Below, piece after piece: positions 1 through 51,137 of a DNA stretch of 64,000 bases. A model generated the notes under the pieces. It worked only from the letters and a program-made list of their open reading frames with translations, was not told the origin of the DNA and ran no database searches. Both the position numbers and the translations under genes were made by a program. Source of the stretch: Schmidtea polychroa (taxonomy: Eukaryota); the NCBI GenBank assembly GCA_044892525.1, contig CM097885.1, forward strand, positions 70,742,001 to 70,806,000, given 5' to 3'. Numbering within the stretch: position 1 is the first letter of the stretch; each line of letters begins with the position of its first letter.

Positions 1-629
1 TGTGGCGAAGTAGCGTGGGATGAAAACGTCAAACTTCTTTTGAAGAATAGTGGTAAAAAATTGAAGACGTGGATACGCGGTTCATACTAAATTTCATACA
101 ATCCCTCTGTGATCATCTTGCAGATAGATTTCCAGAGAATGAAGTTCGGGACTGGTCCGCTTTTAATTGTGACGCTATAAAACAATGCAATTTCAGTTTT
201 GGTATTGAACAAATTAAGAATCTGTGCTCAAAATACAAGAATCTCCTTGAGCTCAATGAAATTGATCTTGTAGTTCAAGAATATAAAGATTACAAATTTG
301 TTGTAGCTGAAAAGATAAAAAGTAAACTGGTTTCCAATTATCCAGACATGGTTGCATACGCACTTCAAAGTGACCAGTTTCAACATCTATCCAAACTGAT
401 GGATATAGGGGGAACGTTCCTAGCTTCAAGTGTGGACTGTGAACGAGGTTTCAGTTTAATGAACAATATAAAAAACAAATTACGAAATCGTTTAGAAGAA
501 TTTCATCTCGATATGCTCATACGAATTAAAAGTTACCTGCTAGATGGCGGAATAATAAATCTGGACACAGTTTATTCAGAGTGGAACTTCCAAGTTGAAG
601 CTTTGTTCGCGAGCAGTTTGGAAGACTGA
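1..629 (+). pseudogene. hAT-superfamily transposase C-terminal remnant (dimerisation domain), runs off the window start
   Basis: ORF 69-629 contains ASSVDCERGFSLMNNIKNKLRNRL, matching the hAT C-terminal dimerisation motif. Upstream coding-like text (CGEVAWDENVKLLLKN) is in another frame, implying a frameshift near 55-65. Confidence 0.75.
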
Positions 630-1622
630 TAAAAAGCACAATGCAGAGTAAATTTTGAAGTTTGTATTAAATATTTATTGATTTAAAAAACATGTTATAA
701 ACTGAAGTTTTAGCGTTGAAAGCTCAACAATGTAGAACATTTTTCTATACCTATTATAACATTTTATCAATGATTCGTTTCTTCTCCCAGTCCCAGATAT
801 ATTTGACTCATAATCCGAGTAATTTTCTGACCTAGTATATAATAGTAATTTACATTGAAATGCGAAATGTGTGCTATATCAATCGCGGATTTCGTAATTT
901 TTCAAACTCGCAAGCGCACAAATTATGCAGCTTTTCACAAACGTTGCACAGGCAGAATTTTCTGCGCACATACTCTCCGAGAAATTAGAGAATATGAGGC
1001 AGGTGAGCACTTGTGTTAGCACTACTCACTCGTGTGCTTCCAGTTCGAGTTCTTGACTGACTATAGAAGGACTTACGTCTTCACAGAAAACGAATGTCTG
1101 CTAGATCAATACGATAACCATAAGTCATGGTCATACCTTATTATATCATTACTGTTTAATGTAAATATCATCTACTTGAAACAAACCACAAGTTTTAATC
1201 ACCTACAACATTTTTATTTACACTATGTATATAACATGCTAAGTACAATTTACATCAACAGGGCACAGAAAGAAACAAAAGGAAAACATCTACCGGTCAA
1301 GATACAACTACTACAATATGTTTACACAAGTACACAAACTCACAATCCACTATAAAACTGAACGTTAATCTGACGTCTGGAAGATTCTTGGTTGGGCGCG
1401 ACACGTTGCTTCGATGGATAGCCGTGACCCGTCGCGGAGACTCACATGGCATCACTCCAGAAGGAGGCGGCCTCGGCTTCGACCAACAGATCGGCGAGGT
1501 TTTCTATATCGACCGTTTCCTCCGAGTGTAAATCCACTAGAAGAATAATTCGCGTTTTGTATTGAATTAGTGATTAACAATTTTGGTTAATTTAATGTAA
1601 ATTAATTTGCAATTTAGATCGA

Positions 1623-3065
1623 ATGTCGACTATAAATGAAAAATTGAATAAAATTTCCCAGTTGCTTTCAGAGCACAAATTTACAATTGTCAGTGATCTA
1701 ACTGAGGATTACAAATGTGGAATTTGCAAAGGAATTATCAACAATGCACATCAAATAATATGCGGATGTAATTTTTGTATGAATTGTATTAATCAATATA
1801 TTGGCAATGGCGGGGCTAAATGTCCAGCATGCCAATATGAAAATGTATTAGAGATTTCAAAAAATCACAAATTGAACATACAAATTTCTTCAATTACGGT
1901 GAGATGTCCAAATGAAAATTGCGCTCATGAATGCAAGCTCACAGAAATGGACGAGCATTTGAGATTATGCTCAAAAAGAAATGTGGAATGCCCGTTTGGC
2001 GGTATTGGCTGTCAGTTGAAGGAGATGAGCAAGGATAAATTGAATGAGCATTCCATCTCTAATATTGACAACCACAATAAAATCTTAATTGAAATGATCG
2101 GAGAATTGAGAAATGAAATGAATGAGCTAAAGATAAATGATATGAGAAAAGATGAAGCAATTGAATCATTAAGAAATGAAATCAATGCGATAAAGGTAAA
2201 TCAAATATCTGATTGATTTATTAATAACTGGCATAATTCAGCAAGAAAATCAAGAGCTGAAAACCATGATGAGAAATAGCAATAATAATTTGTGGATCAA
2301 ATTGGATCAGATGGATATCGAGATAAATGACAGGTGCAGAAATGATACGGTCACATCGATAACTGAGCAAATTGAATCTGTGAGAGTAAAATAATTGATT
2401 GAATTGATCTGATCAATTGATTTATAAATATTCAGATCAATCAATTGGAATTGGAACAGCAATTGAAAATTGTCGACAGAAAATGCCAAGTGAGAATTGA
2501 GAGCATTTGATTATTGTTGATGATAAATTGATCTGAGGAATTGAATGGAAATGTGCAAATCATTCACCAGGTGAAAGCTGACAGTGATAGGATGGCGATG
2601 GATATGCAGGAAATGAAGGGGGAAATGGATAAACTGACACGGGAAATGCAGCGAATCAACAAATTCCTGGAAATGCGGTATGATGGGGAGTTGCGGTTGC
2701 CAATCGGTAAAATCAATGAAATGCAATGGATGGGCAGTGACATATTCTACGATTTCCAGAATCCATATAAAATGCTATTGGTGCTGAATAATGCAGCTGA
2801 TAAATTGAAAATATGGCTATGGATTTATTCTGCTGCATTTGATGATGATTTGCAATGGCCAGTGAAGGCAGAAATAAACATTGAAATTGAATCATTAAAT
2901 AATCTTGAACAATCAAAATCATTGACAAAATCACTGACAATCCAAAAACCAGCAAATGATTCAGAGGAACCAAGTGATGCATTATCATTTGCCCATGCAG
3001 ATCTGAATGCATTACAATTGCTTGATAATAATTGCATAATTGATTGTTCTGTTAAATTTGAATAA
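1623..3065 (+). CDS. TRAF-like protein (RING - TRAF zinc finger - coiled coil - divergent MATH/TRAF-C), 4 exons, ~430 aa
   Basis: Exon 1 (1623-2195) has a RING (CGICKGIINNAHQIICGCNFCMNC...CPAC) and TRAF-type zinc fingers (CPNENC...HLRLC; CPFGGIGC...H). Three phase-0 GT-AG introns join everything in frame: 2196-2241 (46 nt), 2380(or 2386)-2435, and 2490-2537 (48 nt). The last exon has MATH-like text (SDIFYDFQNPYKMLL...AFDDDLQWP). Confidence 0.85.
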
Positions 3066-5249: not shown

Positions 5250-6311
5250 TGTTGGGGTTCAGTAGGAACCGAAATTGAAGGTTCGAAATTAAATAATAAT
5301 TAAAATAATAATTAATTACTAAAATAGGAAGTAAAATAAAAATAGTATTTTAAAATTACCAAAAATAGAAATTAAACTATAAAATTAAAACTAAAATATA
5401 ATTAATAATAAATAATTACTAAAAATAGAATTATAGAAATTATTTAAAAATATATAATAAAAATAGTAATTAAACAATTACTATTAATAGAATTAGGTAA
5501 GTAAAAATTATATAAATTGTAGATGAAAATCAGATGGGAGGACGGTGAAAAAAGATCGGACACGACAGATTAAAAGTAGTTCAAAAAGTCGATATAAATC
5601 GAAACTGATTTGCTCGCATTAAGCGACAGAAAATTTACATTAAATTTGGACAGACCAGCATTTGATAGTCTCAGTTGATCAACAATTTTTGATTAAGAAA
5701 CATTAACAAATAATTTGGAATTTTTTATTTTTTCGCTTATCTCTAACTTCTATTGAAGAATTAATTTAAGAAAAAGGGAAGATCAGATTAACAAGTTCAA
5801 CAACCCATCTGAGGTTCATATTCATTTTCGGAATATCTTATAGTTAGTATTATTATTGTCTTATTCTTGAAAATATTTGTTTACTTATTTTAACTAAATA
5901 AAGGGACAATATAACCTCATCACTGATTTTTGTGTTGTATCGTTATTTAATATTAAAATTCATTTGAAAAGAGTTAACCAATTTCTGGGTTGACTCTATA
6001 GCTTAAAATTTGGTGATCTACCCTGTGTCTTTTCCTTACACCTATATCAGGCTGTTGGCGCATTTAGGGCCAGCCTTGATCCTTAGTAACACTCTTTAGA
6101 GCGGTTTGAATAACCGTTTTCTGTACTTAGAGAACGCAGCGTGTTGTATCTATATATGCATATTTAAACGTGTAACTAACCTTTTATTGATAAATAAATA
6201 TTTAAAACATATCTCTTATTTATTTATTTACCTACACGCGTAAATTATTTACTTGGAGTCAGATAGAACATTTTTTGTGTTAGTTCGAATTCATACCCAT
6301 CGAACCTAACA
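5250..6311 (+). repeat. 5' LTR of element 1
   Basis: Same length as 18997-20058 with about 11 substitutions by my manual comparison; TG...CA ends. Confidence 0.97.
6151..6198 (+). promoter_or_regulatory. Putative TATA box (6151-6157) and AATAAA poly(A) signal (6193-6198) in the LTR
   Basis: Motifs sit in the expected U3/R position of the LTR. The AT-rich context weakens specificity. Confidence 0.4.
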
Positions 6312-6314
6312 TTT

Positions 6315-6332
6315 TGGTGAGCCCGACGTGAT
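6315..6332 (+). promoter_or_regulatory. Primer-binding site complementary to tRNA-Trp
   Basis: TGGTGAGCCCGACGTGAT lies 3 nt after the LTR and matches 17/18 nt of the avian retroviral tRNA-Trp PBS TGGTGACCCCGACGTGAT. Confidence 0.9.
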
Positions 6333-6410
6333 AAAATTATCAGCGGGTAGATATTGAAATAAAACAAAATAGCGTTAGGAACTAGAGCCAGAGTAAAACT
6401 GAATAATCAT

Positions 6411-7305
6411 ATGGCAGAGGAAGCTAATGAAAATGCATTTGCCAGATATCCCGCTCTGCCCGTAAAGGCATTCAGCTGTGATCCGGGAGAATTCCCAGTT
6501 TATGTCTGAATATTATCAGATGGCCAAAGCATATGCTTATCCAGATAATATCATGATACAAAGGCTACCTATATATTTGAAGGGGCTGGCAAGAGAAAAA
6601 TATAATGACATTATAGCATTACCAGTTGCTCAAGTACCGAAAACATGGGCTGAAATGAGAGAAGCAATGACTGCTCGAATATTGCCCGGAGATGCGGGAA
6701 GAATATTTAGACAACAATTTTATCATCGGAAACAAAATGCCAATGAACATGTAGGGGAATTTGCACACCAGCTATCATTAATTGCTGAAAGAGCATTTGG
6801 ACCAAAAACCACATGGGCAAAGCCAACAGAATTGTTAGTTAAGGATCAGCTATGGGCAGGACTTACTCCTACAATGAGGAACGCTCTAATATTACATACT
6901 AGTGATGGTTTTGATGAATTGACACGGAAAGCTGTCGTAATTGAAAGCAGCTTGGAAAAGTCAACCATGTTCCTGGTAAACAGTGAAAGAACACCGGTAG
7001 AGTGTTTCAATTGCCATAGAAAAGGGCATATAGCGAAAGATTGTACCAGTAGGAAAATTATGGACAATCGCAAAAGTATACAATGTACCAAATGTGGACG
7101 GAATAACCATGGTGCGGAAAATTGTAGAGTGCAGAATTTGCAATGCGAAAAATGTAAACGAAAGGGACATATTACTGCGGTCTGTAAGACTAGAAGTTCT
7201 CAGAACAGCAATAATTTTAGTACAATTAAAAGAGAGGATGTAAATTCATCAAGAAAGATAAAATGTCACGGATGTGGGAAATTCGGACATATGATGAGGT
7301 CATGT
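6411..7305 (+). pseudogene. gag: Gag with four CCHC zinc knuckles (frameshift near 6485-6495)
   Basis: ATG at 6411 (MAEEANENAFARYPALPVKAFSCDPG) is out of frame with ORF 6478. Capsid-like text (FYHRKQNANEHVGEFAHQL) is followed by knuckles CFNCHRKGHIAKDC, CTKCGRNNHGAENC, CEKCKRKGHITAVC and CHGCGKFGHMMRSC (7003-7305). Confidence 0.9.
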
Positions 7306-7893
7306 CCTCAGAACCAGAGTGGAAATACGAGTCAGTTCAATAAAAATACCGATAAGGGTAATGTGAACAAGTCTAAGACAACTTTCATGGTTAATCAGGA
7401 TCAAGGGTTAACGTATCTGCAACAACTGGAAATGGAAATCCAGGAGGAAAAGAATAGGTTGGCTAGATTGACCGACCAAGAAGGCACCATCTTCATGGTA
7501 GAAGTTGGAAGAGATGAATATCTCAGAAAAAAGGACTCCGTTAGAGAGGACTTCCAGGAAACGGAATCAGAGGAGAGTTCCGATGATGAACCTAGTATGG
7601 CCACCATACTAAGCGAGTTCGATAGAACCTTGCCAGGGAAAGCAAAGGTAAAAGAAGGGTCAGATACCCTAACAAAATGTTTAAAACTGGTGGATTCCAG
7701 ATATGAGTACCAGCAGAAGCTGGCCAGACAATTGGGAAAATTGGGAGAAACAGAAATTAAAATTCACGAAATCGATACAGTAGTAAAACTGATATCGCAG
7801 GTCGAAGATGATCCAAAGTATCATAACGACACGTACAAAATCCTAAGGAAATTAGGAAAACTCATGGAACATGAGTGGGATCTCCAAGATGCC

Positions 7894-8100
7894 CAGCTCA
7901 ATATAAAACTCCCACAGGATAAAGAGTATAATCTCGATATAAATGTAAGAAGTCGAGCCGATAAATTAACGGAAGCATTGGCAAGTATTAAGCACCAAGG
8001 ATATGACTTATACTTATGTGGAACAAAACTAGAAGCAAATCAAACACTTCTACAGAACGGGATACTTCCAGGTGGAGTAACGAAGCTCACAGCAAAGAGA
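7894..8100 (+). other. Ubiquitin-like domain 1 in the element-1 polyprotein
   Basis: QLNIKLPQDKEYNLDI...YDLYLCGTKLEANQTLLQNGILPGGVTKL parallels ubiquitin MQIFVKTLTGKTITLEV...[28 protein letters not shown] (by-eye alignment). Confidence 0.65.
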
Positions 8101-8415
8101 GCACAGAAGCCAGTAGCAGTAATGGATCAAGATAGCGTATTCTTGATTACTCAAATGGAAATAGAGAGTTTGGAAGAAACTCAACAATTAACCCAGCGAC
8201 TAGGGTTAGAATTGCAGAAATCTCCACGAGATGGAGAAACCATAAAGGAAATACTGGACTGGATATTAGTATTACGAATACCAGTAGATTTGTTGGAAGC
8301 AATAATTCCACTTATACTACCAGTAGTAAAGGAAACAAGCCCATTCCAGACGCAAATTGAAGCGCTGATGAGGAAAAATGGGAAAGCTATCCGAAGTCAG
8401 CCTGATAGACAAGGC

Positions 8416-8637
8416 AACATTAATCTAGACGTGCGAATGATGGGAAAAGAACCATTAACAATGATTTATAATTGCTATATCAAGGTTAAAATATTGAGGA
8501 GAGATGTAATTGCCACCGATCAAACTACAGGTATATTCCTGATAATGGTCCATGGCAGGCAAGTGGATGATGATGAATATTTAGTGGATGTGGGTTGTCT
8601 ACCGCTGGCAACAACCACGGTAATGATCATCCCAGTA
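8416..8637 (+). other. Ubiquitin-like domain 2 in the element-1 polyprotein
   Basis: INLDVRMMGKEPLTM...FLIMVHGRQVDDDEYLVDVGCLPLATTTVMII, where HGRQVDDDEYLVDVG parallels ubiquitin [15 protein letters not shown]. Confidence 0.6.
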
Positions 8638-9453
8638 ACTCCACCAGAGTCCCAGTGGTCATTAATGAGACTGCCAGATATAGCAAACGAAATTGCGGAA
8701 GAGATTGAGGAAATAAGACTAGAGGAAATTAATCCCTGTCCAATGGTGGACATTGACGAGGAAGATTACTTCTCAGAATACGTCAGATTAAATCCAGGAG
8801 AAACAAACGTAGGAGCTACTACGTCACAAGCAGTAACAAATCTGGAGACTGAAAAACCTCCGGAGAAAGTGAAAAAAGATGCACGAGGACGTCCTAGAAA
8901 GGATCAAATGAAACCTCCACCCAAGGAGCAGTTAAATCCAGATACGATTCGGAAAATTCAGTTAAAAACATTAGCAGGGATAGCCCAAGAAATGGACGAC
9001 CAGGCGGGAGATGAGACAACGTCAGAAAGGTCGTTATTATGGCAACGTATCCAACAAATGATCGGGATTATCAGGCCCGAATGGAGAATTCCAAAAATCA
9101 AGGGGATCGAAGTAAAGAAAATAAAGAAAGAGGTCAAGAAGACAATGGAAAGAGTATCCTAAGATGTATCAACTAGAGATATACAGGATGCCATAGAAGC
9201 ATTCGTGCAGCAAGGATTAACGAGAGGGAAAGTGGTGACATCACTATCATTGTTAATTCAAAATGCCTTAGCACGGATAGGGGATGATAAAAGGCTTATA
9301 GAACGAGAAATCGATCAAATAGTCGAAATGATAGATTATTACCTGGAGGTATGGATGACCGTAAACAAATTTTGGGAAAAGGAAACGATTCCAAAACCAC
9401 GATATGAAGTCGTGGAAGAGGCCATAAATAATGGTAGTCCAGGCACAGGAAAC

Positions 9454-11310
9454 ATGACAAGCATGATCCTGATGTTCCTAGTGATGATGGGCATATTAAA
9501 ACAAACAAATTCATTAACAGTATTTGACTGTGGAAACCCTAAACTATCTCGGGTATATTCATTAGTAGATGCAATTGAGTGCAAAGAGGCGTATCCCGAG
9601 AAGGTTCATCAAGGGGAAAAGGTAGAATATTATGTCTACCAAGAGAGTGAATTTTATAGAACAACGATAAAGGAATGTAGAGTTCAAAGAGCTACATTCT
9701 AATATTATTGCGGTAGTAATAGCTATTCTGCTTTTCTATCCGCAACATTAATACCAAGGCCGGTAAACATAATGCCCGAAGATTGCTTAGATGCATTTCG
9801 AAAAGGAAGTGTGAGGATAGACAACGAGGTATCAATCTCAGCAGAAATTGGGAAAACATTGGGAATAACAATCACTCGAGGAGGAACAATTGCCTCAGAT
9901 GGAACCTGCGAAGGTAGAAAGAAAATTCGCGGTAGCAATTTAGTTTCCTATGTGGTAGACATAGAAGATTACTCAGTAGAGCTACGAGAATACGAGGGAA
10001 CATTCGATGTGGCCACAGGAAAATTGATGGCACATCCGCAATGAAATGCCAAGTTCGGTAGTTGTAAAACGGGAACCACTACATTAATCTACGAACAAAT
10101 GAGAGATCATTGTAAGCTGGCCTTCCTCAAGAAAATTCCTTTTAGAAAATTAAATGGAACTAAATACCGGGACTCCCAGAATCCAGAAAAGGTTTGGGAT
10201 AAAGCAAAAACGTTGAAGAAAATCAACAAACAAGAGAAGGAAGATATCGAAGAGGAAAACACACCTCTAGTATTGATATCGGAAGACAAGACGGAAGCAA
10301 TTCGATTTGTCCGAAAAGATAAAAAGACTAAATGTGGGAAAAGAGTATACGAGACGAACTATAAAGGAATTTTCCTGTCAAGAGAATATATCCGGAATTC
10401 CAAGGTCCTACACGTAAAGGATATCAAAATCACGAATTATATAAATAATAAAGTAGATTATTTATACCATGATTTGCAAGGACAAATGCAAGATATGTAT
10501 CAAGAGGTGATACTAAACGATTGCAAGCTTAATCGTGAAATAGTCCGAAATAGATTAGCAATATCTATCGTTAACCCAGAGTTGGTTACTCCAATGTTAT
10601 TGGAAGATGGAATGTTTGGCAGAATCATGGGAGAAGCTATATATAGCTATGAGTGTAAACCAGTTGAAGTACAATTAGCCAGATTTAATCAATGCACTCT
10701 AGAACTGCCAGTATCTTACCAAGGAAAATTAAGATTTGTTATGCCAGTAACCAGAAAGTTACTTGAGAAAAACGCTAAACCTCAACCAGCTATATGCAAC
10801 CCGGCAATATCACCATTATATAAAATAAATGACATGTGGATATCTCTGCCGGAAAGGAAACCATCTACACAACGGGTAGAGACCCTGGAGGTAACTAAAT
10901 TAAAGGATAATCTGGAATTCAAGTCACTAGACGAATTAGCAAAAGGAGGGATCTATACTCCCGACGATATCGAGGAAGCAAGAAGGACATTGCTATTCCC
11001 ACAAATCAGAGACAGAGGTATCACGGAAATAACTTATCATGATAACTTAATAAGACCAGATTACAATCTATTATTTGGACCGGAACACTATAAAGAAGCG
11101 GCAAAGAACGTAATGATGAAAATATGGGGACGGTTTACCAATTTTGGTATTTTCGTCGCGGGATGTTCGGGAATTTACGCAATATTTGTAATTCTAAAGC
11201 TGATAATTACACAACTGATGTCAACATATAGCATATTCAAAATTGGGGGATGGTCATGGAAACTGCTATTAGGACTATGTCCTATGTGTGTAGAGTTTGC
11301 ATTATTCAAA
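9454..11310 (+). pseudogene. env: Envelope glycoprotein, chuvirus-G/herpesvirus gB-like (class III fusion), in frame between Gag and protease; internal stops at 9700 and 10042
   Basis: Signal-like MTSMILMFLVMMGILKQTNS, then VFDC, ECRV...YYCGSNS, EDC...GTCEG, YINNKVDYLY, CKLNRE..RLAI..NP, GEAIYSYECKPVEV and CTLELPV motifs. TM FGIFVAGCSGIYAIFVILKLII at ~11143-11220. Confidence 0.75.
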
Positions 11311-11985
11311 CATCACAGAAAGGAAATTAAAGAAATTAGACAGAAACATTTGGTCAAACATGAAGTAATTGGAACAGAAATGGAGGAGTATTCTAGTTAT
11401 CGGGACGATAACAATTCAAAGGGAGGAGGTAATGGAGGCTCTCGTGAAACATCTTCAAGATCAAATCAATCACGAAAACAGAACTACAACAAAAAACCGA
11501 ATCAGCAACAAAGAAAATCGAGATTTAAGGAATATCTTCCTCCATATGACCAATCAAAGGAAATATACGTGAGAAAACAATCCTCAGAAGGAGAATATGA
11601 CAGTTCCGACCAAAAATTCGACATAAGGTCACCCAGATTCAAGAAAAGTCCAAGATATGTACAATTGCCAACTTTGAGGAGTTTACCATCCGTACCAAAC
11701 GAAGGGCGGGAACATTCAAGGGAAACAACACTCAGAACAGGACGACACCAATGGAAAATCGGTGAAGATACCATATTTAATAATCTGACATGTTCAACAT
11801 TGCCAGAATTACCTAAAGTGCACTATCCAAAGGAAGCGTTAAAGTCAATTAAAGCTAAATTTAAAGAGTATAATCCTCAACTGAGTGATCCTGAATTACT
11901 GGAAGCAGAACAAACTAGAGCAAATACAATCGGTATCTCGCACGATACTATCCTGATGGTCAATAACCCAGTGAACTTGGATAAA

Positions 11986-14040
11986 AAGCCAATGATAAAA
12001 ATAAGAGTGAACCGACATACAGTTAATGCGGTAATAGACTCAGGAGCAGACGGTACTATAATTGAAGCTAAATTGTTAAACCATCATGAACTGCAGTCGC
12101 TAAAACCGGCAGGAGTAAAATTAACAGGAGCAAACGGATCCTCATTAAACGTAATAGGGTCATTATCATGCCAGATTAAGCTATGTGACCAGGAGCTCCA
12201 TCACGACATCATAGTAATGAGAAGCCTCCCAGCCGAATGTCTATTAGGTATGGACATCCTAAAAAGACTACGAGGAGTAGTATTCGATTGTGCATCTGGA
12301 TTGTTAATCCGAGCTCGAGGTAAAAAGAGAAAAATTTACAACGATGATACAGCTTATATAGATCATACAACTATCATACCACCCAGAGCAGAAACAGTAT
12401 GGTTTGTAGCTACAAGCAATAATTGGGAAGGTGAAGTTGTATTTGAACCAGACGAAAGATTTTCGGAGAAATACAATATACCAGTTACGCATAGCGTAGG
12501 TTTAATAGTCAATGGCAGAATACCAATCAGGGTAGCCAATCTGGACATTAAACCACTTTACTTATATCCAGATACCAGAGTGGGCAGAATCTGGAAACAA
12601 AACGAACCACAAGCCACGGGAGAAGGGTCGATACTCACCGTAAAGGCAGAAGAAAGAGATCCAGACATTGAGTACTATGAGGCACCTACAGCAAACAGCA
12701 AAGTGCTAACTAGAAAGGAAAATATTCAAGTAAATATGTTATTGAGGAAATATGACCAGGTATTCGCAAAACATGAATACGATCGGGGAAAGACAAACTT
12801 GCTAGAACATGAGATTGTTCTCACCAATACAAAACCTATAAAGTTGAGACCATACCGTATTCCATTCAGTCTGGAGGAACCATTAGATAAACAGGTGAAG
12901 CTGATGTTAAAACATGGCATAATCAGGCATAGTAAATCACCATATCAATCACCAATGATAGTGGTGGCCAAGAAGGATGGATCAGTACGATTATGTAACG
13001 ACTATCGCATGGTTAACGAAGCAACATGCAAAGATAGCCATCCATTGCCACTGTTAGATTATATCTATGGACGCATGAGAAACGCAAGGTTCTTTTCAGT
13101 AATGGACGCCCAAAAGGGATTTTATCAAATTAAGCTAAAAGATAAGACTATACCAATAACAGCGTTTTCTACGAGTATGGGTCATTACGAATATAACGTA
13201 ATGCCATTTGGACTCACCGGAGCTCCAGTCACATTTCAAAGAGCAATGAATTTGATGCTCATGAATGTACATCATGCGATGGTATACATTGACGACGTCA
13301 TAGTATTCTCGCCAAATTTGGAAAAACACTTGGAACATTTGGAAGATGTGTTCAAGAGGTTGATCAATGCTAACATGAAAGTGAAACCTACCAAATGTAA
13401 ATGGGCCGAACCAGAAGTGGTATATGTTGGCCATATTATATCACGAGACGAGGTTAAACCCGATCCAGCTAATGTCGAAAAGGTAAAGAATTTCCCGGAG
13501 CCTAAAACCGTTAAACATATCAAAGGGTTTTTAGGTCTAGTTGGATACTACAGAAAATTCATTAGAAACTTTTCGGTTATAGCTTTTCCACTCACGCAGT
13601 TAGAAGGCAAAAATGTCAAATTTGTGTGGGGAACAGAACAGCAAGAAGCATTTGATATGCTCAAGGAAAAACTCATCAAGCCACCTATATTGCGATTTCC
13701 AGACTTTGAGAGACAATTTTTGGTTATGACAGATGCCAGCACTCGGGGCATAGGTGCTGTGCTAGGTCAGAGAGATGACCTAGGAGATGAGTATGCAATT
13801 GCATACGCTAGCAGAGGATTAAAACCGCACGAAAGAAACTACGCAGTGATAGAACTAGAGGCTTTAGCAATTGTGTATGCTATAACCCAGTTTAGGACTT
13901 ACCTATGGGGTCGAAAGATCATAGTGTATACCGATCATAGACCATTACAGTGGCTGACGAAACACACAATGGATACATCAAAACTGGTCAGATGGGCATT
14001 AATTTTACAGCTATATGACATAGAAATCCATTATAGAAAA
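11986..14040 (+). CDS. pol: Aspartic protease, reverse transcriptase and RNase H (part of ORF 10099-14376)
   Basis: VIDSGA at 12037; YRIP, LCNDYRMVN, MDAQKGFYQI, MPFGLTGAP and YIDD (13285); TDAS (13729), ELEALAI, YTDHRPL and NADALSR. Confidence 0.97.
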
Positions 14041-14376
14041 GGAGATCATAATGGAAATGCAGACGCTTTATCAAGAATGGACCAGGAGGAGGAAGCAGAG
14101 AATGTGAAGGAAGGACGTCTCGAAGGGACTATCTTCACACTGACTCGAGAAGTCAACCGGCTAGCTGATTTAATGGAGGCAAAAAAAGCTGACGAAGAAA
14201 TCAATGTCATTCGACAAGCCTTAGAGGCAAAATACGTGCCCACAGAATTCACGAAATATTGGGAAAAGAATAAAGACAAGTTTGTGCTGGAGGAAAGATT
14301 AGTCAAATATTCAGATGTAAGAGACAATGTTCTAATGGTCCCTAAGAAATACCGTAAAGCACTCATGTTGCAGTAA

Positions 14377-15390
14377 CACGATGGAGCCTTAGGAGGCCAC
14401 CTGTCATCCAGAAAAACATTGTCAAGGTTAAAACAAAAATATTTTTGGCCCGGCATGAAACAAGATGTTAAAACCTGGTGTCAGACATGTAAGATCTGTA
14501 TCACCAGAAGGAATACCGGCAAGAAACCACACGTACCAATGAAGCCGATGCCTGTACCATCCACACCTATGGAAATGACGGCAATGGACGTGTTGGGGCC
14601 ATTCAAAGAATCTAATAGCGGAAACAAGTACATATTAGTTTTCTGCGACTACTTGACTAAGTGGCCAGAGGCCTACCCGATGCCTAATCACAAAGCTGAT
14701 ACCATAGCTAGAATTTTCGTTGAACAAATTGTCTTTAGGTATGGAGTACCTACAAAGTTATTAACGGATCGGGGAGCTGATTTCATGAGTAATTTGCTCA
14801 AAGGAATAAATGATTATTTCGGAGTTCTAAAGTTGAACACTTCCCCATATCACCCACAGACGGATGGGCTAGTAGAACGATTTAATGGAACACTAGCTAA
14901 TATGTTAGCATCATATGTAAATTCAGGGCAAACGGATCGGGATATCCACATTCCATCCTGTTTATTTGCATACAGGAATGCAGTACACGAAGGAACAGGT
15001 GAAACGCCATTTTACCTAATGTACCTAAGGTAAAGTAAAATGCCAGTAGATCTGTTGTTTTTCCCTAAAGCAACACAGTATTTAGATCAGGAAGATTATC
15101 TAATGGAAATGAAGGAAAGAATGCAGGAAGCATGGGCTAGAGCAGGTCTCAGTATAAAATATAATCAGGAGGCATCCAAAGATTATCATGACCGAAAAAC
15201 CAAGGATCATGGCATATTGGTTGGAGACCAGGTGATGTTGGAAAGTCATTATAACAAGAAAGGCTTATCACCAAAACTCATGCGAAATTTCAAAGGGCCA
15301 TACGAGGTATTGAGAACCACAGACACAAATCTCATATTACAACTTGTAGCCAACAGAAAAGCAGAACCAATAATGGTGCATGCTAATCGG
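14377..15390 (+). pseudogene. int: Integrase: HHCC finger, D-D(35)-E core, GPY/F module; in-frame stops at 14374 and 15031
   Basis: HDGALGGH...CQTCKIC; D at 14587, D at 14767, E at 14875 (35-residue spacing); KGPY at 15292-15303. Confidence 0.95.
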
Positions 15391-15531
15391 TGTAAAAAGT
15401 GCGAAATCTCAACAAAAGGAACCTCTGGAAATTCAAAAGTAAAAGCACCAGAGAAACAAGTGAAACCAAACACTACCGAAGAACCACAAGAACACCGATA
15501 CCCATTGAGATCACCGGGTGTTCCAAAATCG

Positions 15532-16410
15532 GTAACCTTTTTGCTGATAATAAGCTGTATGATGACTTTGGCAATGGCAAAAAGGGATAGAAAGGCATAT
15601 TTTCAGCCTATGGCGATGCAAGTGGAACATTTACATTTTATAAGAACGTATCACGGAATTAGTATACTCACCACGTGCGATAACGCTACAAAATTCAATT
15701 TACATTTCTACAACAAGTATTTGCGGATCCGCCAACTCAATTCAGAAGAAAAAGAGTGGGATTTATATGATTTAAAAGCTGAGACGGATTACAAACTGCA
15801 CATCGCAGCATCAAGGTTATACCAGAGCGGTTGGTATACCTATCACGTATCAAATTGGATCCTAAGGATGGCGGATTTCACAAATCGCATATCGATATCC
15901 TACGAGAAGGAGAAAGTAAAGTTTAGCCAGCAAATTAACAGGGAGGAGGTGAAAATCAGCATTCTAGACGGATCAACCACGAGAGGAACATTATGGTTAG
16001 ACCAGAACTCTCCCTCCCAAGAAATGTATCTAAATCAGTCCGTAGAATATTCGGTTCTAGTTATATACTATAGTCCGAGGAAACGGGAGGACGATAGGTG
16101 GTTCGAGGTATTTGAGGAGATATTGCCTCTGAGACAACCCGTTATAACGAAAACACCACCAAAAGTCGTCAGGGAGAACATGGTGATACATCCCGCAATG
16201 TGGCAACATCTTAGACAGTTGCCACCTATCAAACAAATATCTTGCCAAACGCCCCCAAATCTGACAAACTGTTGTGATTGTAATGCCATCACGAACTTTA
16301 ATGCTGGATATATTCTGAAAATACCCATAGGGGTATGGATTACGGTATCGGCCGTACTATCGCTAGTAACTACACTGATAGCTATGGGTATTTGGACCAA
16401 GCTATATTTT
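15532..16410 (+). other. Second type-I membrane protein module after integrase: signal-like segment, FN3-like ectodomain, Cys-rich stalk, TM
   Basis: VTFLLIISCMMTLAMA; FN3-like strands WDLYDLKAETDYKLHIAAS (15757-15813) and YLNQSVEYSVLV (16027-16062); NCCDC; TM IPIGVWITVSAVLSLVTTLIAMGIW. Confidence 0.6.
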
Positions 16411-16584
16411 AGACAAGCCATAAGGGCTTACGATGGAGTACTGATGTCGCAATTATGACAATTACAGACTCCCCCGAGGGAAAAATCACATATAAATATT
16501 TATATATATCTTAAAATCTATATTTACGTAGAGCTCCAGGTAGCATTAAAATTCAGCATATGTAGATCTTTTATAATAAGACTC

Positions 16585-18691
16585 ATGCATATCTTTTTAG
16601 CCTATTATGGCATATCAGTATATCTGATATTATGGTTAATGATTTTTATTTCAGGAATGCAGAGCCACCCAATATCCCAATACCAAGGAAGGCATAGCAT
16701 TATACGTGCTACGACCTTGCTAAAGGAAAAACTCATTTATAAAAACCTGGAGAAGCAGGTTATAGAGCAAGGTAGAAAAGGCCAAAGGCACTGGTTTTAC
16801 GGACATTGTTCAGGCATACCCAATAATTTCAAGTTTGACGAGGCCCCAAAGCGTCAAATGATTATTTCAAGAATCCCGGGCAAGCATAACGGCAGCATTA
16901 GGCTTACCGAGGTCATGCCTGAGTTTGGCAGACATAGTCTGACCAACCACCTGTGGATACACGCCATTAACAAACCATTTACGGTTTATGTTCCTGGCGC
17001 CACAAACCCTATTTTGCTGCAAAAGCACACAACCCTCGAAATTGAAAACGGGGATGGAAGGGAAAAGAACATCTCACTGTTATGTGAAGGTATAGATACC
17101 ATCATAGCAATGGAAATTCTGGAACCTCACAGAGAAACACAAACGAGATGGGTTAATGACCCAAACTGGACATATAATGTCAACGATAACGACATTAAAA
17201 CATTTAAGTCTTTCGTTAGACAGCGTTTGGACCCTAGACAAGAGGATAACCTCACCATTTTCGTAGCAGCTCACTACGCTACACTACGACAATTCCTGAA
17301 ACCGGCAATCGAGGCCATCTCAATCTCACATTTCAATGGCGATCTGATACTCAACACGAGAGTTACCCCCAGAGCACAGGTCAAACATTACCAATCGCAT
17401 GCGCATGGTATGACCGAGAAACAAATAACAGGACAGTTCGACGGAGAAGACTGTGCCGAAAGAATTAGAAAAATCTCCGATGGGAAGATCATCGTGGGAT
17501 TGCTAGTAAAGGACCTATTAGAAGTAATCAGATTCCCAATGCAGCGCGCACTCGGAATCCGTGAGTTAGGCGCAGCTAAATGCCTCGAAAGTAGGGACCT
17601 AAAGAAATGCAACGGGTATTACCGTTTGGCATATCTGGCAAAAGCAGTCACTGGTAAAGAGGCACATCACTTCTCAGACCTACAAACGGAGAATGATGTC
17701 ACAACCATTAAGGAGATTTACGACAATTTACGAAACATCTGGGTTGATGACATTTCACCAGACACCCGGAAAGAGGTGGTGTCTTCACAAATACAGCAGA
17801 TGGAACCCGGTACCTCAAGCAGGCAGAAACCTCTAGCTATGGAGAGCTATGTGAAAGAAGATATCCCTAGGTCGAAGTTGCTGAAAATAGTGGAAGAAGA
17901 TTCCTTGTCGCCGCCAGCCATTTCAATTGCTGATGAAGACGACTATGCCACTTGTGAGAGTGCAGACGATAACTGCCTCCAAGTCACCCTTACCATTGAC
18001 GGTAGAGTGGTGAATTCGGCTAAAATGGAAGTAGAAAAACCTCAGCCAGCAGAAAAGTTAGTTGAACGGGTCACCAAGATCCTGAAAGCGTTGGCGCCGT
18101 TGGGTGAACCCAAACACGGAGCAGTTTAAAAAGAAAACAACGGAGAAATCCCCCCAGAAAGAGGACAAGGAGAAAAATGTCCCTACCTCTACAAAAAGGA
18201 AAAAGGAGATTCCTAAGAGTACGAAAAAGAAAATGCCTAGGATATCCATCCAGGATGAGGATGACGATCCCCTAGAAACCCACTATCAGCCACCAGATCC
18301 TGCGTTGACCAAGATATTGGCAACAAAGAGTGAACCCACGATTGCAGGAGAGCCTATTATCGTGAAGGAAGGCGAGTTCGTCGGAAGGGGCAACTCAATC
18401 AAAATACGGGAAGATCTCGACAGGGAAGATCCTAGTTGGTGGCAGAGACCCGACAGCAAATGAAAACCGCGTATCAAGGAATACGACGGAGGCCCAATCC
18501 ATGAAGTAGCCGTATCCAATTTCCCCAATTACGGAGTATTGGAGGCTAATGAGGGCTCATATATCTTCACCTCAATTGTGTACAAAGAGGTAAGTACACG
18601 GGAGACTTTGGTGGTCAGTTACAGACCTGACATTGTAGAACAAAGGATCCGTAACGAAAGTGCCAAGGTCATGAAAAGTAGAAAATACTAG
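16585..18691 (+). pseudogene. 3' accessory coding region: hydrophobic segment, degenerate AlkB-like beta-helix (~16850-17120), degenerate DEDDh/ISG20-REX4-like exonuclease (~17251-17727), charged tail via frameshift near 18110-18125
   Basis: Same frame as the polyprotein, with no stop between TGA 16456 and ATG 16585. AISISHFNGDLILNTRVTPRAQVKHYQSHAHGM...KIIVGLLVKDLLEVI...ENDVTTIKEIY follows the REX4/ISG20 pattern. Coding continues in ORF 18104-18463 and, past a TGA, to TAG at ~18691. Confidence 0.6.
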
Positions 18692-18984
18692 CAATTCGGC
18701 TATGTATTCAAGGGACCTAGCAATTTGCTATACGTCCTCAATCCCAACACCTTCGACAACTCAATCCAATCCAGATATTCAAATTGATAGACATTATGAA
18801 CAACATTTGATTAATCTGATTTTTGATTTTGTTTAACAATCTTTGATCATTTTGATTTTTACTTTGATTATTTTATATATATTTTAATCAGTTGTTTTTA
18901 TTTTAATTTTATAATTTTATTTTTATGTATCCGCTGCAATGGTCTTATCTTTACCGCTTTAATTTTCGGGACGAAAATCTTGTT

Positions 18985-18994
18985 AGGGGGAAAA
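18985..18994 (+). promoter_or_regulatory. Polypurine tract of element 1
   Basis: AGGGGGAAAA followed by CA, directly before the 3' LTR. Confidence 0.85.
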
Positions 18995-18996
18995 CA

Positions 18997-20058
18997 TGTT
19001 GGGGTTCAGTAGGAACCGAAATTGAAGGTTCGAAATTAAATAATAATTAAAATAATAATTAATTACTAAAATAGGAAGTAAAATAAAAATAGTATTTTAA
19101 AATTACCAAAAATAGAAATTAAACTATAAAATTAAAACTAAAATATAATTAATAATAAATAATTACTAAAAATAGAATTATAGAAATTATTTAAAAATAT
19201 ATAATAAAAATAGTAATTAAACAATTACTATTAATAGAATTAGGTAAGTAAAAATTATATAAATAGTAGATGAAAATCAGATGGGAGGACGGTGAAAAAA
19301 GATCGGACACGACAGATTAAAAGTAGTTCAAAAAGTCGATATAAATCGAAACTGATTTGCTCGCATTAAGCGAAAGAAAATTTACATTAAATTTGGACAG
19401 ACCAGCATTTGATAGTCTCAGTTGATCAACAATTTTTGATTAAGAAACATTAACAAATAATTTGGAATTTTTTATTTTTTCGCTTATCTCTAACTTCTAT
19501 TGAAGAATTAATTTAAGAAAAAGGGAAGATCAGATTAACAAGTTCAACAACCCATCTGAGGTTCATATTCATTTTCGGAATATCTTATAGTTAGTATTAT
19601 TATTGTCTTATTCTTGAAAATATTTGTTTACTTATTTTAACTAAATAAAGGGACAATATAACCTCATCACTGATTTTTGTGTTGTATCGTTATTTAATAT
19701 TAAAATTCATTTGAAAAGAGTTAACCAATTTCTGGGTTGACTCTATAGCGTGAAATTTGGTGATCTACCCTGTGTCTTTTTCTTACACCAATATCGGGCT
19801 GTTGGGGCATTTAGGGCCAGCCTTGATCCTTAGTAACACTCTTTAGGGCGGTTTGAATAACCGTTTTCTGTACTTAGAGAAAGCAGCGTGTTGTATCTAT
19901 ATATACATATTTAAACGTGTAACTAACCTTTTATTGATAAATAAATATTTAAAACATATCTCTTATTTATTTATTTACCTACACGCGTAAATTATTTACT
20001 TGGAGTCAGATAGAACATTTTTTGTGTTAGTTCGAATTCATACCCATCGAACCTAACA
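18997..20058 (+). repeat. 3' LTR of element 1
   Basis: Direct repeat of 5250-6311, followed by TSD GTCT. Confidence 0.97.
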
Positions 20059-22696: not shown

Positions 22697-24993
22697 CACT
22701 AGATTTACGGACGAAATTACATACCTATTTTTACTGAAACCCGTCATATTGACGGCTACATTAAAATGCTTGTATTGAGCAAAATTTATTGAAAAAAATA
22801 TATATTTTAAAAATCTGATTTAATATAAAAAACAAAGATGAATATATTCATAATTTATTTCATTTAATGGCAAAATATTTTTTTTTCAACATATTATTCA
22901 ACATATTTTTTGCATACATATATCATTTTTTGTGTGCATTTACCACAAACATATTTATTACATTTAATACAAATATTATTGGTTTTGTTTTTTTTTACAA
23001 TATCCGATTTGGCAGGATTTGCGTATATTAGACTTATTTTCTATTGACGATAATGGGTTAGAACCTTTTTGGTATTCACTTCGAATATTCCGCTGCAAGT
23101 TCATCAGCCAATTGAAAAAGAAATTTTTTTCTGGATATATTTTCCCCCGTGGTTTCCTTGTATAGCACCCAAGCATTAATTCCCGACAAATTTAAAATGT
23201 TGTAGAAGACTTGTAGAGGCCATCTACGAGACCCTGATTTTACGCTATATTTCCGTGCCATTTGGTCGACTACATCAACACCAAATTTGGTTTGGTTATA
23301 AAAAGAAACAGTTTCTGGCAAACGTTTATTATTATCTTCAATTTTTACAAATTTATGTTATGAGCTGAGTAGTAAAACCTTTTTTTGTGGTTTACTTTTA
23401 TATATCGTTAGAACACATGACCCAGATTTGTAAAGAAGTGTAGAGAAGCGTTTCATGTTATCTTTCTTATTTTTAGCTGATTTTGGCAATTCCCTTTTGT
23501 TAGCTCGTATAGTTCCAACCAAAGTTGTTCTTTTTGCAAATAATTTATTTGCAAGTGGAATGCTCGTAAAAAAATTATCTGTCGAAATATTTCTTCCACG
23601 TCCTAAATACGGTTCAGCAAGTTTGAGCACTATGAACTCGCTCAAAGGTACTGATCCCCGAGTTTCGTCTTTACCTAAGTACGGGAAGCCATTTAGCAGA
23701 TATTTACTATTTACGTCTGCCGCCAACCAAAATTTTGTACCAAATTTATCTGGTTTATTTGGCATATATTGCGTAAATCGACATCTAGCCTTTGTGGGGA
23801 ACAATTGTTCATCAATGGTAATGTTTTCGCCAGGCTTATAACAGGCTTGACAATTTTCAATAAATTTGTTCCATGTATAGGAAATTAACGCAAACTTATC
23901 AGTTTGTAAACGTTGACTTCGTTCAAATCGTTTGTCAAACCGTATGAATCGGAGAATTTCCATAAATTTGTCTCTGCTCATTGTCTGTGTGAAAAAACTC
24001 GGTCCCCATATCTTTGACCGTAAATATGAAGCCTTCAAAGATTTTGCTTCGTAAGCTCCACGTGCATATAAAATTGCTATGAAAGCGCGTAACTACGATT
24101 TTGATATTTTCCACTCTTTTTTCAAAATTCGAAATGCCTCTAATTCAATGCAAATTTTTATATGTTCCAACATACTTTCATCAATTATCAGTTCAAATGC
24201 GCTAGGTACATTACCTAGCATAATATTCCTTTTGGCGTAAGCCGTTGGTCCTCCTACATCTGTAAATTTATTGAAAAATTGTGGTCTGCCACTACTTACA
24301 CCTTTTTTTAGGGTTTTGCATATGGTCCCATCAACAGATATTTCATTTTCTATGTCTCGTTTTTGTGATTCACCAGGAATTTCAACTTCGCTGTCCGTTT
24401 CTGAAAGAATTCGCAATCTTTTTTTGCCGCGACATACATTAGAAATACTTTCTTCTTCAGTGTCTAAGAGTTCGATTTCATCAGAATCAGAATACTGTAC
24501 TTCATTCTCGCTTTCACATAGCTCAACCTCATTTCTATCAAAATTAGAATCGGAGCAGTTCTCATTTATACCGGTAATTTTTTGTAGTAATTCAGCAATC
24601 CTACGAGATTTCCTCATAATAGCCCTATTCAATTTAGGAAAACTAGATAATATATACATATTTATTATGAAAATATTTTGAACTTACCCTGAAAAATTAA
24701 ATCTATGCTCACAAAATTATTTATGAATGAATCCGTAATATTTGTTGTACAAATAAAAAATGTCGATTTATATTGAAATTAGTTAACCCGTCAAATTGAC
24801 GGATTTTCGGGAAAATAGGTATACCACATACCGATATTTGAAATTAAGATAGCCAACGAAAAATAAAATAGAATATATATTCATATCAATAAACCAATAA
24901 TTTACAACATAATAAAAAAAATCTTTCATTTTATTAATTTAATAGATATGAAATTTGAAACCCGTCAAATTGACGGGTTTCGTAAATCTAGTG
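22697..24993 (-). mobile_element. piggyBac DNA transposon (2,297 bp), defective
   Basis: TTAA TSD at 22693-22696 and 24994-24997; perfect 13-bp TIR CACTAGATTTACG; three subterminal CCCGTCA-N-TTGACGG palindromes (~22737, ~24786, ~24957). Confidence 0.95.
22894..24617 (-). pseudogene. piggyBac (PGBD4-like) transposase pseudogene
   Basis: Catalytic motifs ITIDEQLF, STDNFF and GVDVVDQM; C-terminal Cys-rich domain RKSCQIGYC...CIKCNKYVCGKC. In-frame stops at 24093 and 23358, frameshifts near 23085 and 22990. Confidence 0.92.
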
Positions 24994-32235: not shown

Positions 32236-35200
32236 CTTTTTTCCATTTCAATTAATCTAATTTCATTAATATTATTGTTTATATTTGTTTAAATTTATTA
32301 TTATAAGTATATAAAAATTATTTTAATTTTATTACATGACTTTGACCTCAACAATACTATATATCTTGGGATATTTGGCTTGGTTTATACTCCTCACTAC
32401 TCTAATAAAGTATAACTATTACTTAAGATATAAAAAAATTAAATATTACACAAGAGGTCAAATATTACATAGTGTGTGATAAAACCGATTATTATACAAT
32501 CTGCGTATCGTTACATCATAATGTATATAATTACGTACCTTTATAGAATGATGTAACATCGTACCCACCCAGGTAACCATACAAATATTGCGTAAAACTG
32601 TATATCGTGGGATATTCGGCTTGGTTTATATCCTCACTTGTCATTCTTAGGAATGTTAATGATGTCATTGAAAATACCGATGATTCATATAGTCAATATA
32701 ATTCAAAATATAATTTAACAAAATTTTGTTCAAATTAAAACATTCTTGTTATAATTTACGCTCTTGTCAGGATTTATTAAATGTAAATGTAGAAAAATAA
32801 TAATAAATAAATAAAATTAATTGAATAATTATTAAAAAATTCATTAAAAATTCTGTTTATAATTAAATTCTTGTTAAGATATATTAAATGTAAATGTAAA
32901 AAAAATAAATAAATAAAATTAATTGAATAATTAATTAAAAATTAATTACAAAAGTAAAAATAAATTAGTAATAATAATAGTTCATGGAATAAATAAAAAA
33001 TAAATAAAAATAATAATAATTTTAATAATAATTAAAATTTATTAGGACATAAACCAAAAAAATTAATTATTTGTGACGTTAATGAATAGGTATTTTTATA
33101 ATCAATTTGATTAAATTCTTGCATATAGATTTATTTTTTCTCGTTTAAATTCTGAGAATATAAATATTTTTACATTATTTTCTTCACAACATCTAACCTA
33201 AAATTTCTTGTCTTTCAGAATTAATTTTGAAATCGAAATTCCCATGTATGAGGTGATTTTTCAAACTTCCTAAATAATCGCCAGAATCTTCATTTTCCAC
33301 TTTGCTGTTTCGATAATTTTTTGAAATTCGTTTTTGCATTTTCAAAATATCCTTCCCGGATTATCAGCTATTTTAAAATTACCAAATAATTTTCACCTTT
33401 CTTTAAATAATCTCATTGATATTTTTTATCTTTTTTCTCCTGCTCCATCTGATTATTTTTTCTTTATAATGTGAGTAAGTGATTTGGATCTTTTCCATAG
33501 CAGATCTCAATAGAAAATGGGTCAGTGATAAAATTGTTGGGGGAGTGACAGATTGAAAGGTCTCCTGACCACACGAATTATAGACCTCCAAGCCACCCGG
33601 GATTGAATTTTACTACACAAGATCTACCAATAATAATTTTAATAACTTGTAGTGCCCCTATAAATTTTAATTAAAATCAATGGAAATTTTTAATCATTAA
33701 CTTATAATAAAATAAAGACCGTTGAGACATAGGAAAATCTAAGAAAAATGAAAGCATAATTTTCTAAATGAAAAAATCTTTCTACATACAATTATTGATT
33801 GCCATTTTACTCTACGAATATAGTCTAACAAATCAATTTAATAGAGTTCTTACATAACATTTCTTGAATGCATAATTTGGATGAAAAAATGGACATACGC
33901 TAACGCATTGTATTTCCAGAACAAATAAGATTAGAGTAAAACGTGAGAGTCAAAATCTTTTGTTCAATACAACATCTTATATACCTAAGTTTTCGTGAAT
34001 CATACTTTGAATTTTTTGTTTTTCCTACTGTTTGTTATCGTGTTAGATGAACATAACAAAATCAATGCTAGTTTTTGACCTAACTATAGAAACAAACAGA
34101 ATTATCTGTTTATCAAATTTTAATGTTACATGGAACAAAAAATTATATAGAAATAGGAAAGTGGTATAATTTAATAAAAACAAAGATTTTATTATTTGGA
34201 AAAGTGACAGATTAAAATTAAGAATTCAATGCCAAATTTTTTAAAATGAGTTGAGAAAATAAAGAGAAAACAGAAATTATGAAGACGAATTTTTTAATGG
34301 TTACTATGAATAACAAAATGTTTATTTACCTTTATAATTTACAAATTTGAAAAAAACTTTTAACGATAAAACATAACCTAAAACCATTATTTAATAAATA
34401 TTCACCATTTTGTCCAAAATGGATAAATAAAATAAAAATATGTGGTTTATAATATAAAACATATAATTTAGGTAAAAAATTATTAACACTTACTTTAAAT
34501 TGCAAAAAAATCAAAGTAAAATCAAATTCATAAATTGAATAAAAATAACAGATAACAAATTATGAGTCATCTATAGATTTGTACATTAATCTGTATTATA
34601 GATATTTTTATTCCGTGTAAACGGATGTAAAGTCATCTAGAGTTGATTTCGATTTGAGGGTTTACCAATTTGTTCTAGCGCATCAGAAAAATATACATTC
34701 AACAGCATTAAGTCGATTTAAAATCCACGATAATACATCTAGTAAACTAGTAAAGACCACAACACCTCAATCATAAATTAAAGTATGTAATTAAAAAATT
34801 GTAGCGATAGATAATTTACTACAATATAGTTAAGAATGAAAAATAAAGTAATTTAAAATCTTGCTTACTGAAATCAATACCTTGTCCAATTTCAGTGTGG
34901 TAGGGTCAGGTATGGTGGTCGCGGGTTGTCACTTGAATTTTTCCACCGGAATTCAATTTTTGGTCATTCTGGGGTGAATGCACTGAATTCCTTGTGGTTT
35001 CTCATGATTTCGGTCTTTATTGTGTTGGGCTAGAACTGATTTCTAGACCCAAAGTTGGAAATGGGACGAAATGTGTCAGTACACAACACGCATACCCAGC
35101 ATTAAGTTTACTTAAATAAAAATATATAAAACACCAAGTAAACAATGATAATAGAGAGATAATATACCCAAAAATAAAACATCTGAATTAAAAATAAAAT

Positions 35201-50410: not shown

Positions 50411-51137
50411 AACGAAATAAAAGAGATAAACTATTAAGATGAAATTGATTAAATTGACGTAGATTAAGTGCGACAAAGAGGTAATGATTAAAGGAAAATT
50501 ATGATAGAGCGCCGGCGCAAGAGAAACTGAAACCAAATTTTTGAATGGGGAAAAGCGAAGAGGAGATATTAATTAAGTTACTGATGAGTTTTATATGTAT
50601 ATGACTAATGATATATATTTTTTAATTATATAATTGATGTTGTGATTATATGATAGATAATTGATACGACGATATAGATAATTCATACGAGTTATAGATA
50701 ATTAAAAATGGACTTAAATTCAAAAGGGGGTGAGTAGCAAAAAGTAAAAGCGTACCATGAATTAGAAAAGGAACAGCGAGAGAAATAATGAGTAAAGAGT
50801 AGTATAAAATAAAGAAAATAGGGAAATAAATGAAGGGTAGAATAAAATGAATAAAATATTATGATATGTACTAGGAGTGTTAATTATTTTAGAATAAAGC
50901 AAACCATTCAGAAGGAAGTCAATACAGCCCAAGAATTCAAGCGAAATAAAGAGAAATCAAAAATTCAAAAGAAAACAAATAAGGAATCAAGAGAATCAAA
51001 CGAGGATAGAAGAAAGGTAAACAAAGTCAATTTAAATAACAAGAGGAAAATTAAAGCGTTGGCCAACGAAACACAGTGAAATTCAAAAGAGATTATTAAA
51101 GCGGGACAAAATTGATAATATAGCCATTCGAACGAGA

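Follow-up and report, generated by a model that had tools for sequence, protein, structure and literature searches.

The window, by which we mean the whole 64,000-nucleotide stretch of DNA that was analyzed, holds a full-length LTR element at positions 5250-20058 (14,809 bp), and all features of this element described below lie on the forward (+) strand. The 5′ LTR (5250-6311; 1062 bp, TG...CA) is 99.0% identical to the 3′ LTR (18997-20058), a purine-rich tract stands just ahead of the latter, and GTCT is found on both sides of the entire element as a 4-bp target-site duplication. A primer-binding-site-like stretch at 6315-6332 is recognized by its position and its TGG start only. The LTRs, the target-site duplication, a PR-RT-RH-IN order and a gB-type Env between gag and pol are features of a Ty3/gypsy Gag-Env-Pol errantivirus, and all are present.

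Inspection of the coding region reveals a single frame at 6466-18129 that runs through Gag capsid, zinc knuckles, a cargo block, Env, protease (PR), RT, RNase H (RH), integrase (IN) and a tail. Six internal stops interrupt this frame, as does a frameshift early on, and at most 3,888 codons are in frame. The Gag start codon at 6411 is out of frame with the main ORF, the frameshift lying near 6470-6500, and the Gag capsid region (6411-6963) matches Retrotrans_gag with an E-value of 0.0015. It is followed by the nucleocapsid (7000-7320; zf-CCHC E 1e-7), where four CCHC zinc knuckles are read from the sequence. Further downstream, a hydrophobic stretch at 9460-9510 (11-residue hydropathy of 2.97 at 9466), presumably the h-region of the Env signal peptide, precedes an in-frame Env fusion protein of the gB/Monjiviricetes type (9511-11350; PF24664 E 1e-64), which has stops at 9700 and 10042 and a membrane segment at 11134-11229. 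Pol, comprising protease, RT, RNase H and integrase, continues in frame at 11980-15400 with stops at 14374 and 15031. Read from the sequence, the order of domains is Gag-H1-UBL1-H2-UBL2-AT-hook-helical domain-signal-Env-PR-RT-RH-IN, where H denotes a helical bundle and UBL a ubiquitin-like domain. Among public sequencing runs under one species label, the family is high-copy and variable, and many variant copies carry internal deletions (within window positions 6300-10100). Past the integrase, about 870 codons at 15500-18129 remain in frame with several hydrophobic segments and may encode more accessory proteins; comparison of this tail with Pfam and NCBIfam gave no convincing family.

Two predicted bundle-plus-ubiquitin-fold units in the cargo block

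Two segments enclosed by the element, UBL1 at 7891-8100 and UBL2 at 8419-8637, had been described in an initial annotation as ubiquitin-like beta-grasp domains. Structure prediction, which that annotation proposed as a check, gives both a beta-beta-alpha-beta-beta-beta fold of about 70-75 residues, in agreement with the description. Each is preceded by a predicted helical bundle, a three-helix bundle ahead of UBL1 (H1, 7684-7866) and a four-helix bundle ahead of UBL2 (H2, 8161-8397), and the structure model is confident over helical bundle and UBL; these bundles, like the AT-hook and the Bcl-2-like domain described below, had been missed. Sequence similarity of the UBLs to the ubiquitin family is weak yet consistent across searches, lying under Pfam cut-offs and at about 6-21% identity to ubiquitin-family chains. 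Profile matches include ubiquilin UBL domains, in structure UBL2 comes closest to SUMO chains, level with ISG15 and ubiquitin, and ubiquitin-family leads appear in the ESM Atlas at 0.83-0.86, under its mark of 0.9. A C-terminal di-glycine after the last strand is absent from both UBL1 and UBL2, as expected from the earlier view that they are not conjugatable. Each segment, a predicted ubiquitin fold with no di-glycine at its end, forms the second half of a bundle-plus-UBL unit, and the stretch that encodes UBL1 and H2-UBL2 is unbroken. Neither H1 and H2 nor their profiles match a family in Pfam or the PDB. A Foldseek match to ATG5 (UBL-helical-UBL; E 3e-6) was discarded, its rmsd of 23 Å indicating likeness in domain order only. 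The two units likely arose by duplication, as suggested by their shared predicted architecture and by the second unit of the related protein P0009, which aligns to the first unit of the window; BLASTP finds no similarity between UBL1 and UBL2 (E 11).

The expectation that the UBLs would be conserved among relatives was confirmed by phmmer, where 13 of the 15 matched proteins are relatives of the cargo block, at 24-55% identity. The remaining matches, P0013 and P0015, were set aside, the latter being a repeat protein and spurious. Inspection of the relatives reveals H2-UBL2 to be the conserved core, kept in all long relatives, and this second unit persists in distant ones at 24-44% identity. 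Two units can be recognized in the window, P0005, P0009 and the L002/L005 family, and P0006, P0007 and P0014 have the second unit only. In P0002, which is 55% identical, UBL1 runs almost directly into UBL2 and H2 is absent. H1 is aligned in P0002, P0005 and P0009, and more weakly in L002/L005. Gag zinc knuckles occur in 4 of the 13 block relatives, and P0014 joins a Gag zinc knuckle, the H2-UBL2 unit, Env and protease in one protein. Residues 1550-2070 of P0014 hold up to four aspartyl-protease-like stretches in tandem.

The unit is also matched by nine metagenome loci that belong to another family with about 20% identity to the window; three of the loci (L002, L004 and L005) continue into an Env-like frame. 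Word-based protein searches with a single sequence gave no match, and the 8 proteins recovered with a profile all belong to the L002 family. In the viral contigs searched, neither the unit nor the Bcl-2-like region has a relative. The dN/dS comparison that had also been proposed was made in this related family, taking in L002, L004 and L005 out of the nine loci. Values of about 0.1-0.2 were obtained (UBL1, 0.06-0.22; UBL2, 0.08-0.21; linker, 0.16-0.23; some dS saturated), and purifying selection acts on the frame as a whole, without being clearly stronger in the UBLs than in the linker. Because selection on the linker is of similar strength, these values attest to a frame being maintained rather more than to any special role of the UBLs.

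Each UBL was further compared with the binding surface of ubiquitin, with the patch positions L8, I44 and V70 mapped via alignments of the UBLs with ubiquitin-family members. Of the 15 UBL2 rows, 9 have a hydrophobic residue at the I44-equivalent (3 of them Ile) and 6 have Ser, Gln or Glu; in UBL1 this position is hydrophobic in one and polar or charged in five of the 6 rows that truly carry UBL1, two non-homologous rows having been dropped. The V70-equivalent column is hydrophobic in 12/14 rows. UBL2 of the window has hydrophobic residues at the patch, with Met at the I44-equivalent, and the patch is absent from UBL1. In contrast to the variable I44-equivalent, the conserved face of UBL2 retains E-Y-L in 15/15 rows, the first Asp in 14/15 and a Gly in 14/15, where these invariant residues constitute an acidic loop on a face other than the Ile44 patch and their conservation is partly circular, three L rows having been fetched with the acidic-loop motif.

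A probable Bcl-2-like domain ahead of Env

Past UBL2, an acidic linker and an AT-hook-like sequence motif (8881-8904, in low-confidence linker) lead into a six-helix domain at 8938-9372 that carries BH1- and BH2-like motifs. The AT-hook motif is also present in P0006, P0007, P0009 and P0014 (Pfam AT_hook E 0.027 on P0009), and is not seen in the L002/L005 translations. The domain at 8938-9372 was chosen by eye before testing. Its stop at 9160 in the window copy is absent from the other copies compared from public runs, and its six helices are modelled at low confidence (pLDDT 35-65).

Several comparisons link this domain to Bcl-2. A five-row profile aligns to BH1-BH2 of Bcl-xL with an E-value of 1.3 (30/31 matches, all to the same protein), and the sole NCBIfam match of P0006 is TIGR00865 bcl-2, at E 0.013. 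HHalign against two viral Bcl-2 proteins gives a score of 27.0 (P 8e-4 over 66 columns), where column shuffles reach at most 16.2 (0/232 attain 27.0) and the reversed control 13.8; the HHalign probability itself is low, at 25%, falling to 7% without P0006 and to 2% in a further comparison. Pfam Bcl-2 does not match the domain, a four-row profile finds no match in the PDB, the ESM Atlas offers no usable match to the C-terminal domain of P0006, and the Foldseek fold lists, filled by UBL matches, contain no Bcl-2 or TFIIS-N fold. Ig-Fc and scaffold-protein matches were taken as chance, and three of five loci fetched with the BH1 pattern were not Bcl-2. On these sequence comparisons, 8938-9372 is probably homologous to Bcl-2, and the estimate draws in part on Burro, a planarian retroelement for which a BCL-2-like motif at the equivalent position has been published.

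As in viral and cellular Bcl-2 proteins, the BH1- and BH2-like motifs appear to lie near the spacing of Bcl-xL and are followed by a hydrophobic segment; the h-region of the Env signal begins about 30 residues past the BH2-like motif. The domain differs from those proteins in a degenerate NWGR motif, in having no clear BH3, in falling under all family cut-offs and in being embedded in a retroelement polyprotein. P0014 retains H2-UBL2 and Env and by eye has no Bcl-2-like domain before the signal, such that the UBL does not depend on the Bcl-2-like domain. A probable Bcl-2-like domain near the Env signal is seen also in P0006 and in L002/L004/L005. Separately, clear Bcl-2 homologues were observed in viral contigs of 130 and 148 kb (L010:481-792 and L011:432-743 (-), with Pfam E-values of 2e-24 and 5e-12, respectively).

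Possible roles of the cargo block

A six-residue motif recurs in the polyprotein at 6964, 7381, 7486, 8134, 11947 and 14128, where 6 occurrences compare with 0.42 expected for a pattern drawn up post hoc, from sites already seen. The borders at which it falls include capsid/nucleocapsid, the position before protease, RNase H/integrase and UBL1-H2, the last of these as a candidate protease-cleavage motif at 8134-8151. Cleavage by the protease of the element at the motif near 7486 and near 8134 would release two proteins, H1-UBL1 and H2-UBL2-linker-Bcl-2-like, the latter with the AT-hook in its linker. Signal peptidase would then leave the Env signal segment on the latter protein as a C-terminal membrane anchor, a placement that would match that of cellular Bcl-2 proteins.

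The explanation that we favor, plausible and held tentatively, is that the block provides the protein-binding modules of a host-control cassette within a Gag-Env-Pol errantivirus polyprotein and does not consist of budding signals. The Bcl-2-like domain would dampen or delay apoptosis of expressing cells, and the UBL unit would bind host ubiquitin/SUMO-pathway or proteasome factors, or set the turnover of its own protein, using its conserved acidic face instead of the Ile44 patch. The order UBL, BCL-2, Env matches the published order of Burro and supports a host-control cassette; an AT-hook, on the other hand, sits poorly with a membrane-anchored product. A more far-reaching version, possible and rather doubtful, is that the bundle-UBL and Bcl-2-like cassette is old and conserved across a clade of Gag-Env-Pol errantiviruses and is not an oddity of Burro. 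The Env signal peptide would double as a Bcl-2 tail anchor, so that every capsid precursor of these RNA retroelements would come with one anti-apoptotic protein, membrane-anchored and under the control of the fused UBL unit, which would act via a surface other than Ile44.

The budding role that had originally been suggested, in which the UBLs act as a built-in ubiquitin mimic that recruits ESCRT and replaces a late domain, now appears distinctly unlikely. The available portion of PMC2958808 reports that ubiquitin fused to Gag can replace late domains and that this rescue needs both L8 and I44. The UBLs are placed behind the nucleocapsid, PT/SAP, PPxY and YPxnL motifs are absent from residues 1-1000 of the main frame, and the hydrophobic patch of the window UBL2 (Met at the I44-equivalent), together with the largely hydrophobic V70-equivalent column, would suit such a mimic. 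The suggestion as a whole is weakened because the I44-equivalent, needed for budding by fused ubiquitin, varies across rows, and it is further opposed by the low identity to ubiquitin-family chains and by a YPxL-like motif in the upstream Gag frame near 6447. The same variable patch bears on another role that we consider highly improbable, in which the UBLs shield the polyprotein by acting as decoys for deubiquitinases or proteasome receptors: proteasome receptors recognize the Ile44 patch, which is not conserved here, although ubiquilin UBL domains are among the profile matches and a UBL without di-glycine could bind such enzymes uncut.

Two further roles draw on the neighboring domains. The bundle-UBL units might form a matrix- or tegument-like layer that links the capsid to the membrane via the Env signal anchor, an unlikely role that would suit a Gag starting almost directly with capsid, where any tie to the membrane would be C-terminal. 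With Gag, cargo and Env in a single frame, block and capsid would be produced in equal numbers, and the retention of H2-UBL2 in all long relatives and the confident bundle-UBL model are also consistent with such a layer. Copy number, however, varies between one and two units, P0002 is without H2, and the adjoining Bcl-2-like and AT-hook motifs point to regulation. Very unlikely, in our assessment, is a nuclear or chromatin module, in which TFIIS-N-terminal-like bundles act with a SUMO-like domain and the AT-hook to bring in SUMO machinery or serve as a tether for the integration complex, like the SUMO-like domains of Rad60/NIP45 or like LEDGF. The AT-hook motif of the window and four relatives and the SUMO chains among the best (tied) structural matches of UBL2 agree with this module, and we take H2, by eye, to resemble TFIIS-N. 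Against it, H1, H2 and their profiles have no Pfam or PDB match to a TFIIS-N-type domain, the AT-hook is not seen in the L002/L005 translations, and a membrane anchor is predicted at the C-terminus of the product.

Relation to known elements and proteins

The combination of domains had been thought unreported, which does not hold: the available portion of a 2019 review (Arkhipova and Yushenova, PMC6431247), from which all statements on Burro here are taken, describes planarian Burro ORF1 as containing Gag, a Ubi2/SUMO-like domain, BCL-2 and an in-frame Env. Burro/GYPSM1 and the window element share a single polyprotein with Gag and CCHC knuckles, UBL, BCL-2-like domain (a probable one here), Env and PR-RT-RH-IN, and the Burro Env, in frame like that of the window, is similar to mononegavirus fusion proteins. 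The Burro authors suggest meddling with host apoptosis and ubiquitination. In size, Burro exceeds 30 kb with an ORF1 near 4,900 aa, in contrast to 14.8 kb with 1.06-kb LTRs here; the review names one UBL, whereas the window has two, each behind a helical bundle, and four knuckles. The Burro UBL is likened to the window UBLs by published description, and homology is not implied. MATH, BIR and ankyrin cargo, which are traits of Burro, gave no Pfam match at E up to 1 in the element ORFs. The spacer between PR and RT fits the size of the dUTPase-like domain of Burro, and no dUTPase profile match lies there. The window element is a compact relative of Burro and is not Burro by size or by MATH/BIR/ankyrin cargo. 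In its available portion, PMC8532177 treats the expression of Burro, not its domains.

Chary and Hayashi 2026 (PMC13524379, available in part) describe six families of GAG-ENV-POL type in Schmidtea; the length of four is 14.5-14.9 kb. These Platyhelminthes errantiviruses share with the window element the GAG-ENV-POL order, an HSV/gB-type Env, a size near 14.5-15 kb and a multicopy state. Smed_errantivirus_4 is the closest of the six by the start of Env (by eye, the first 50 residues agree at roughly two positions in three), a likeness that suggests a planarian host, and the window Env differs from all six Env fragments. Ubiquitin, Bcl and apoptosis are absent from the main text available, the seven supplements contain no relevant mention, and the cargo block is unannotated there. 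In the literature searched, with figures and subscription papers outside its scope, UBL/BCL-2 cargo in such elements was found only in PMC6431247, and a description of the doubled helical-UBL unit or of its spread was not found.

Integral UBLs, such as those of ubiquilins, Rad60/NIP45 and BAG6, likewise place a beta-grasp inside a larger protein without a di-glycine end. The UBLs described here differ in their 6-21% identity, variable Ile44 position, conserved acidic loop and linked upstream bundle. What is new is the doubled bundle-UBL unit, the retention of its second unit in distant relatives, and an AT-hook and probable Bcl-2-like domain ending just before the Env signal peptide. The discovery is moderate because the combination has already been published. 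In 2019 such cargo was noted in a single sentence based on HHpred; the present analysis backs that sentence with structural and evolutionary support and widens its reach beyond giant Burro to multicopy elements that are compact and share its architecture. Regulators of apoptosis and of the ubiquitin system encoded by the parasite itself are known mostly from large DNA viruses. Should the cassette work as proposed, retrotransposons of regenerating animals would carry their own regulators of both, and the compact block offers small isolated domains open to testing.

Elsewhere in the window, pieces of a TRAF-like host gene (RING, TRAF zinc finger and MATH) lie upstream of the element at 1596-3065. 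A second Gag-like ORF pair at 51036-55690 combines zinc-knuckle-like motifs with a long ORF in which no RT is visible. ORF remnants at 23358-24683 (-) and 57-629 (+) resemble what we take to be piggyBac-type and hAT-type transposases, respectively. Three copies of a repeat of ~3 kb occupy 35023-38100, 43870-46900 and 57990-61000 and are 92-100% alike in their best blocks.
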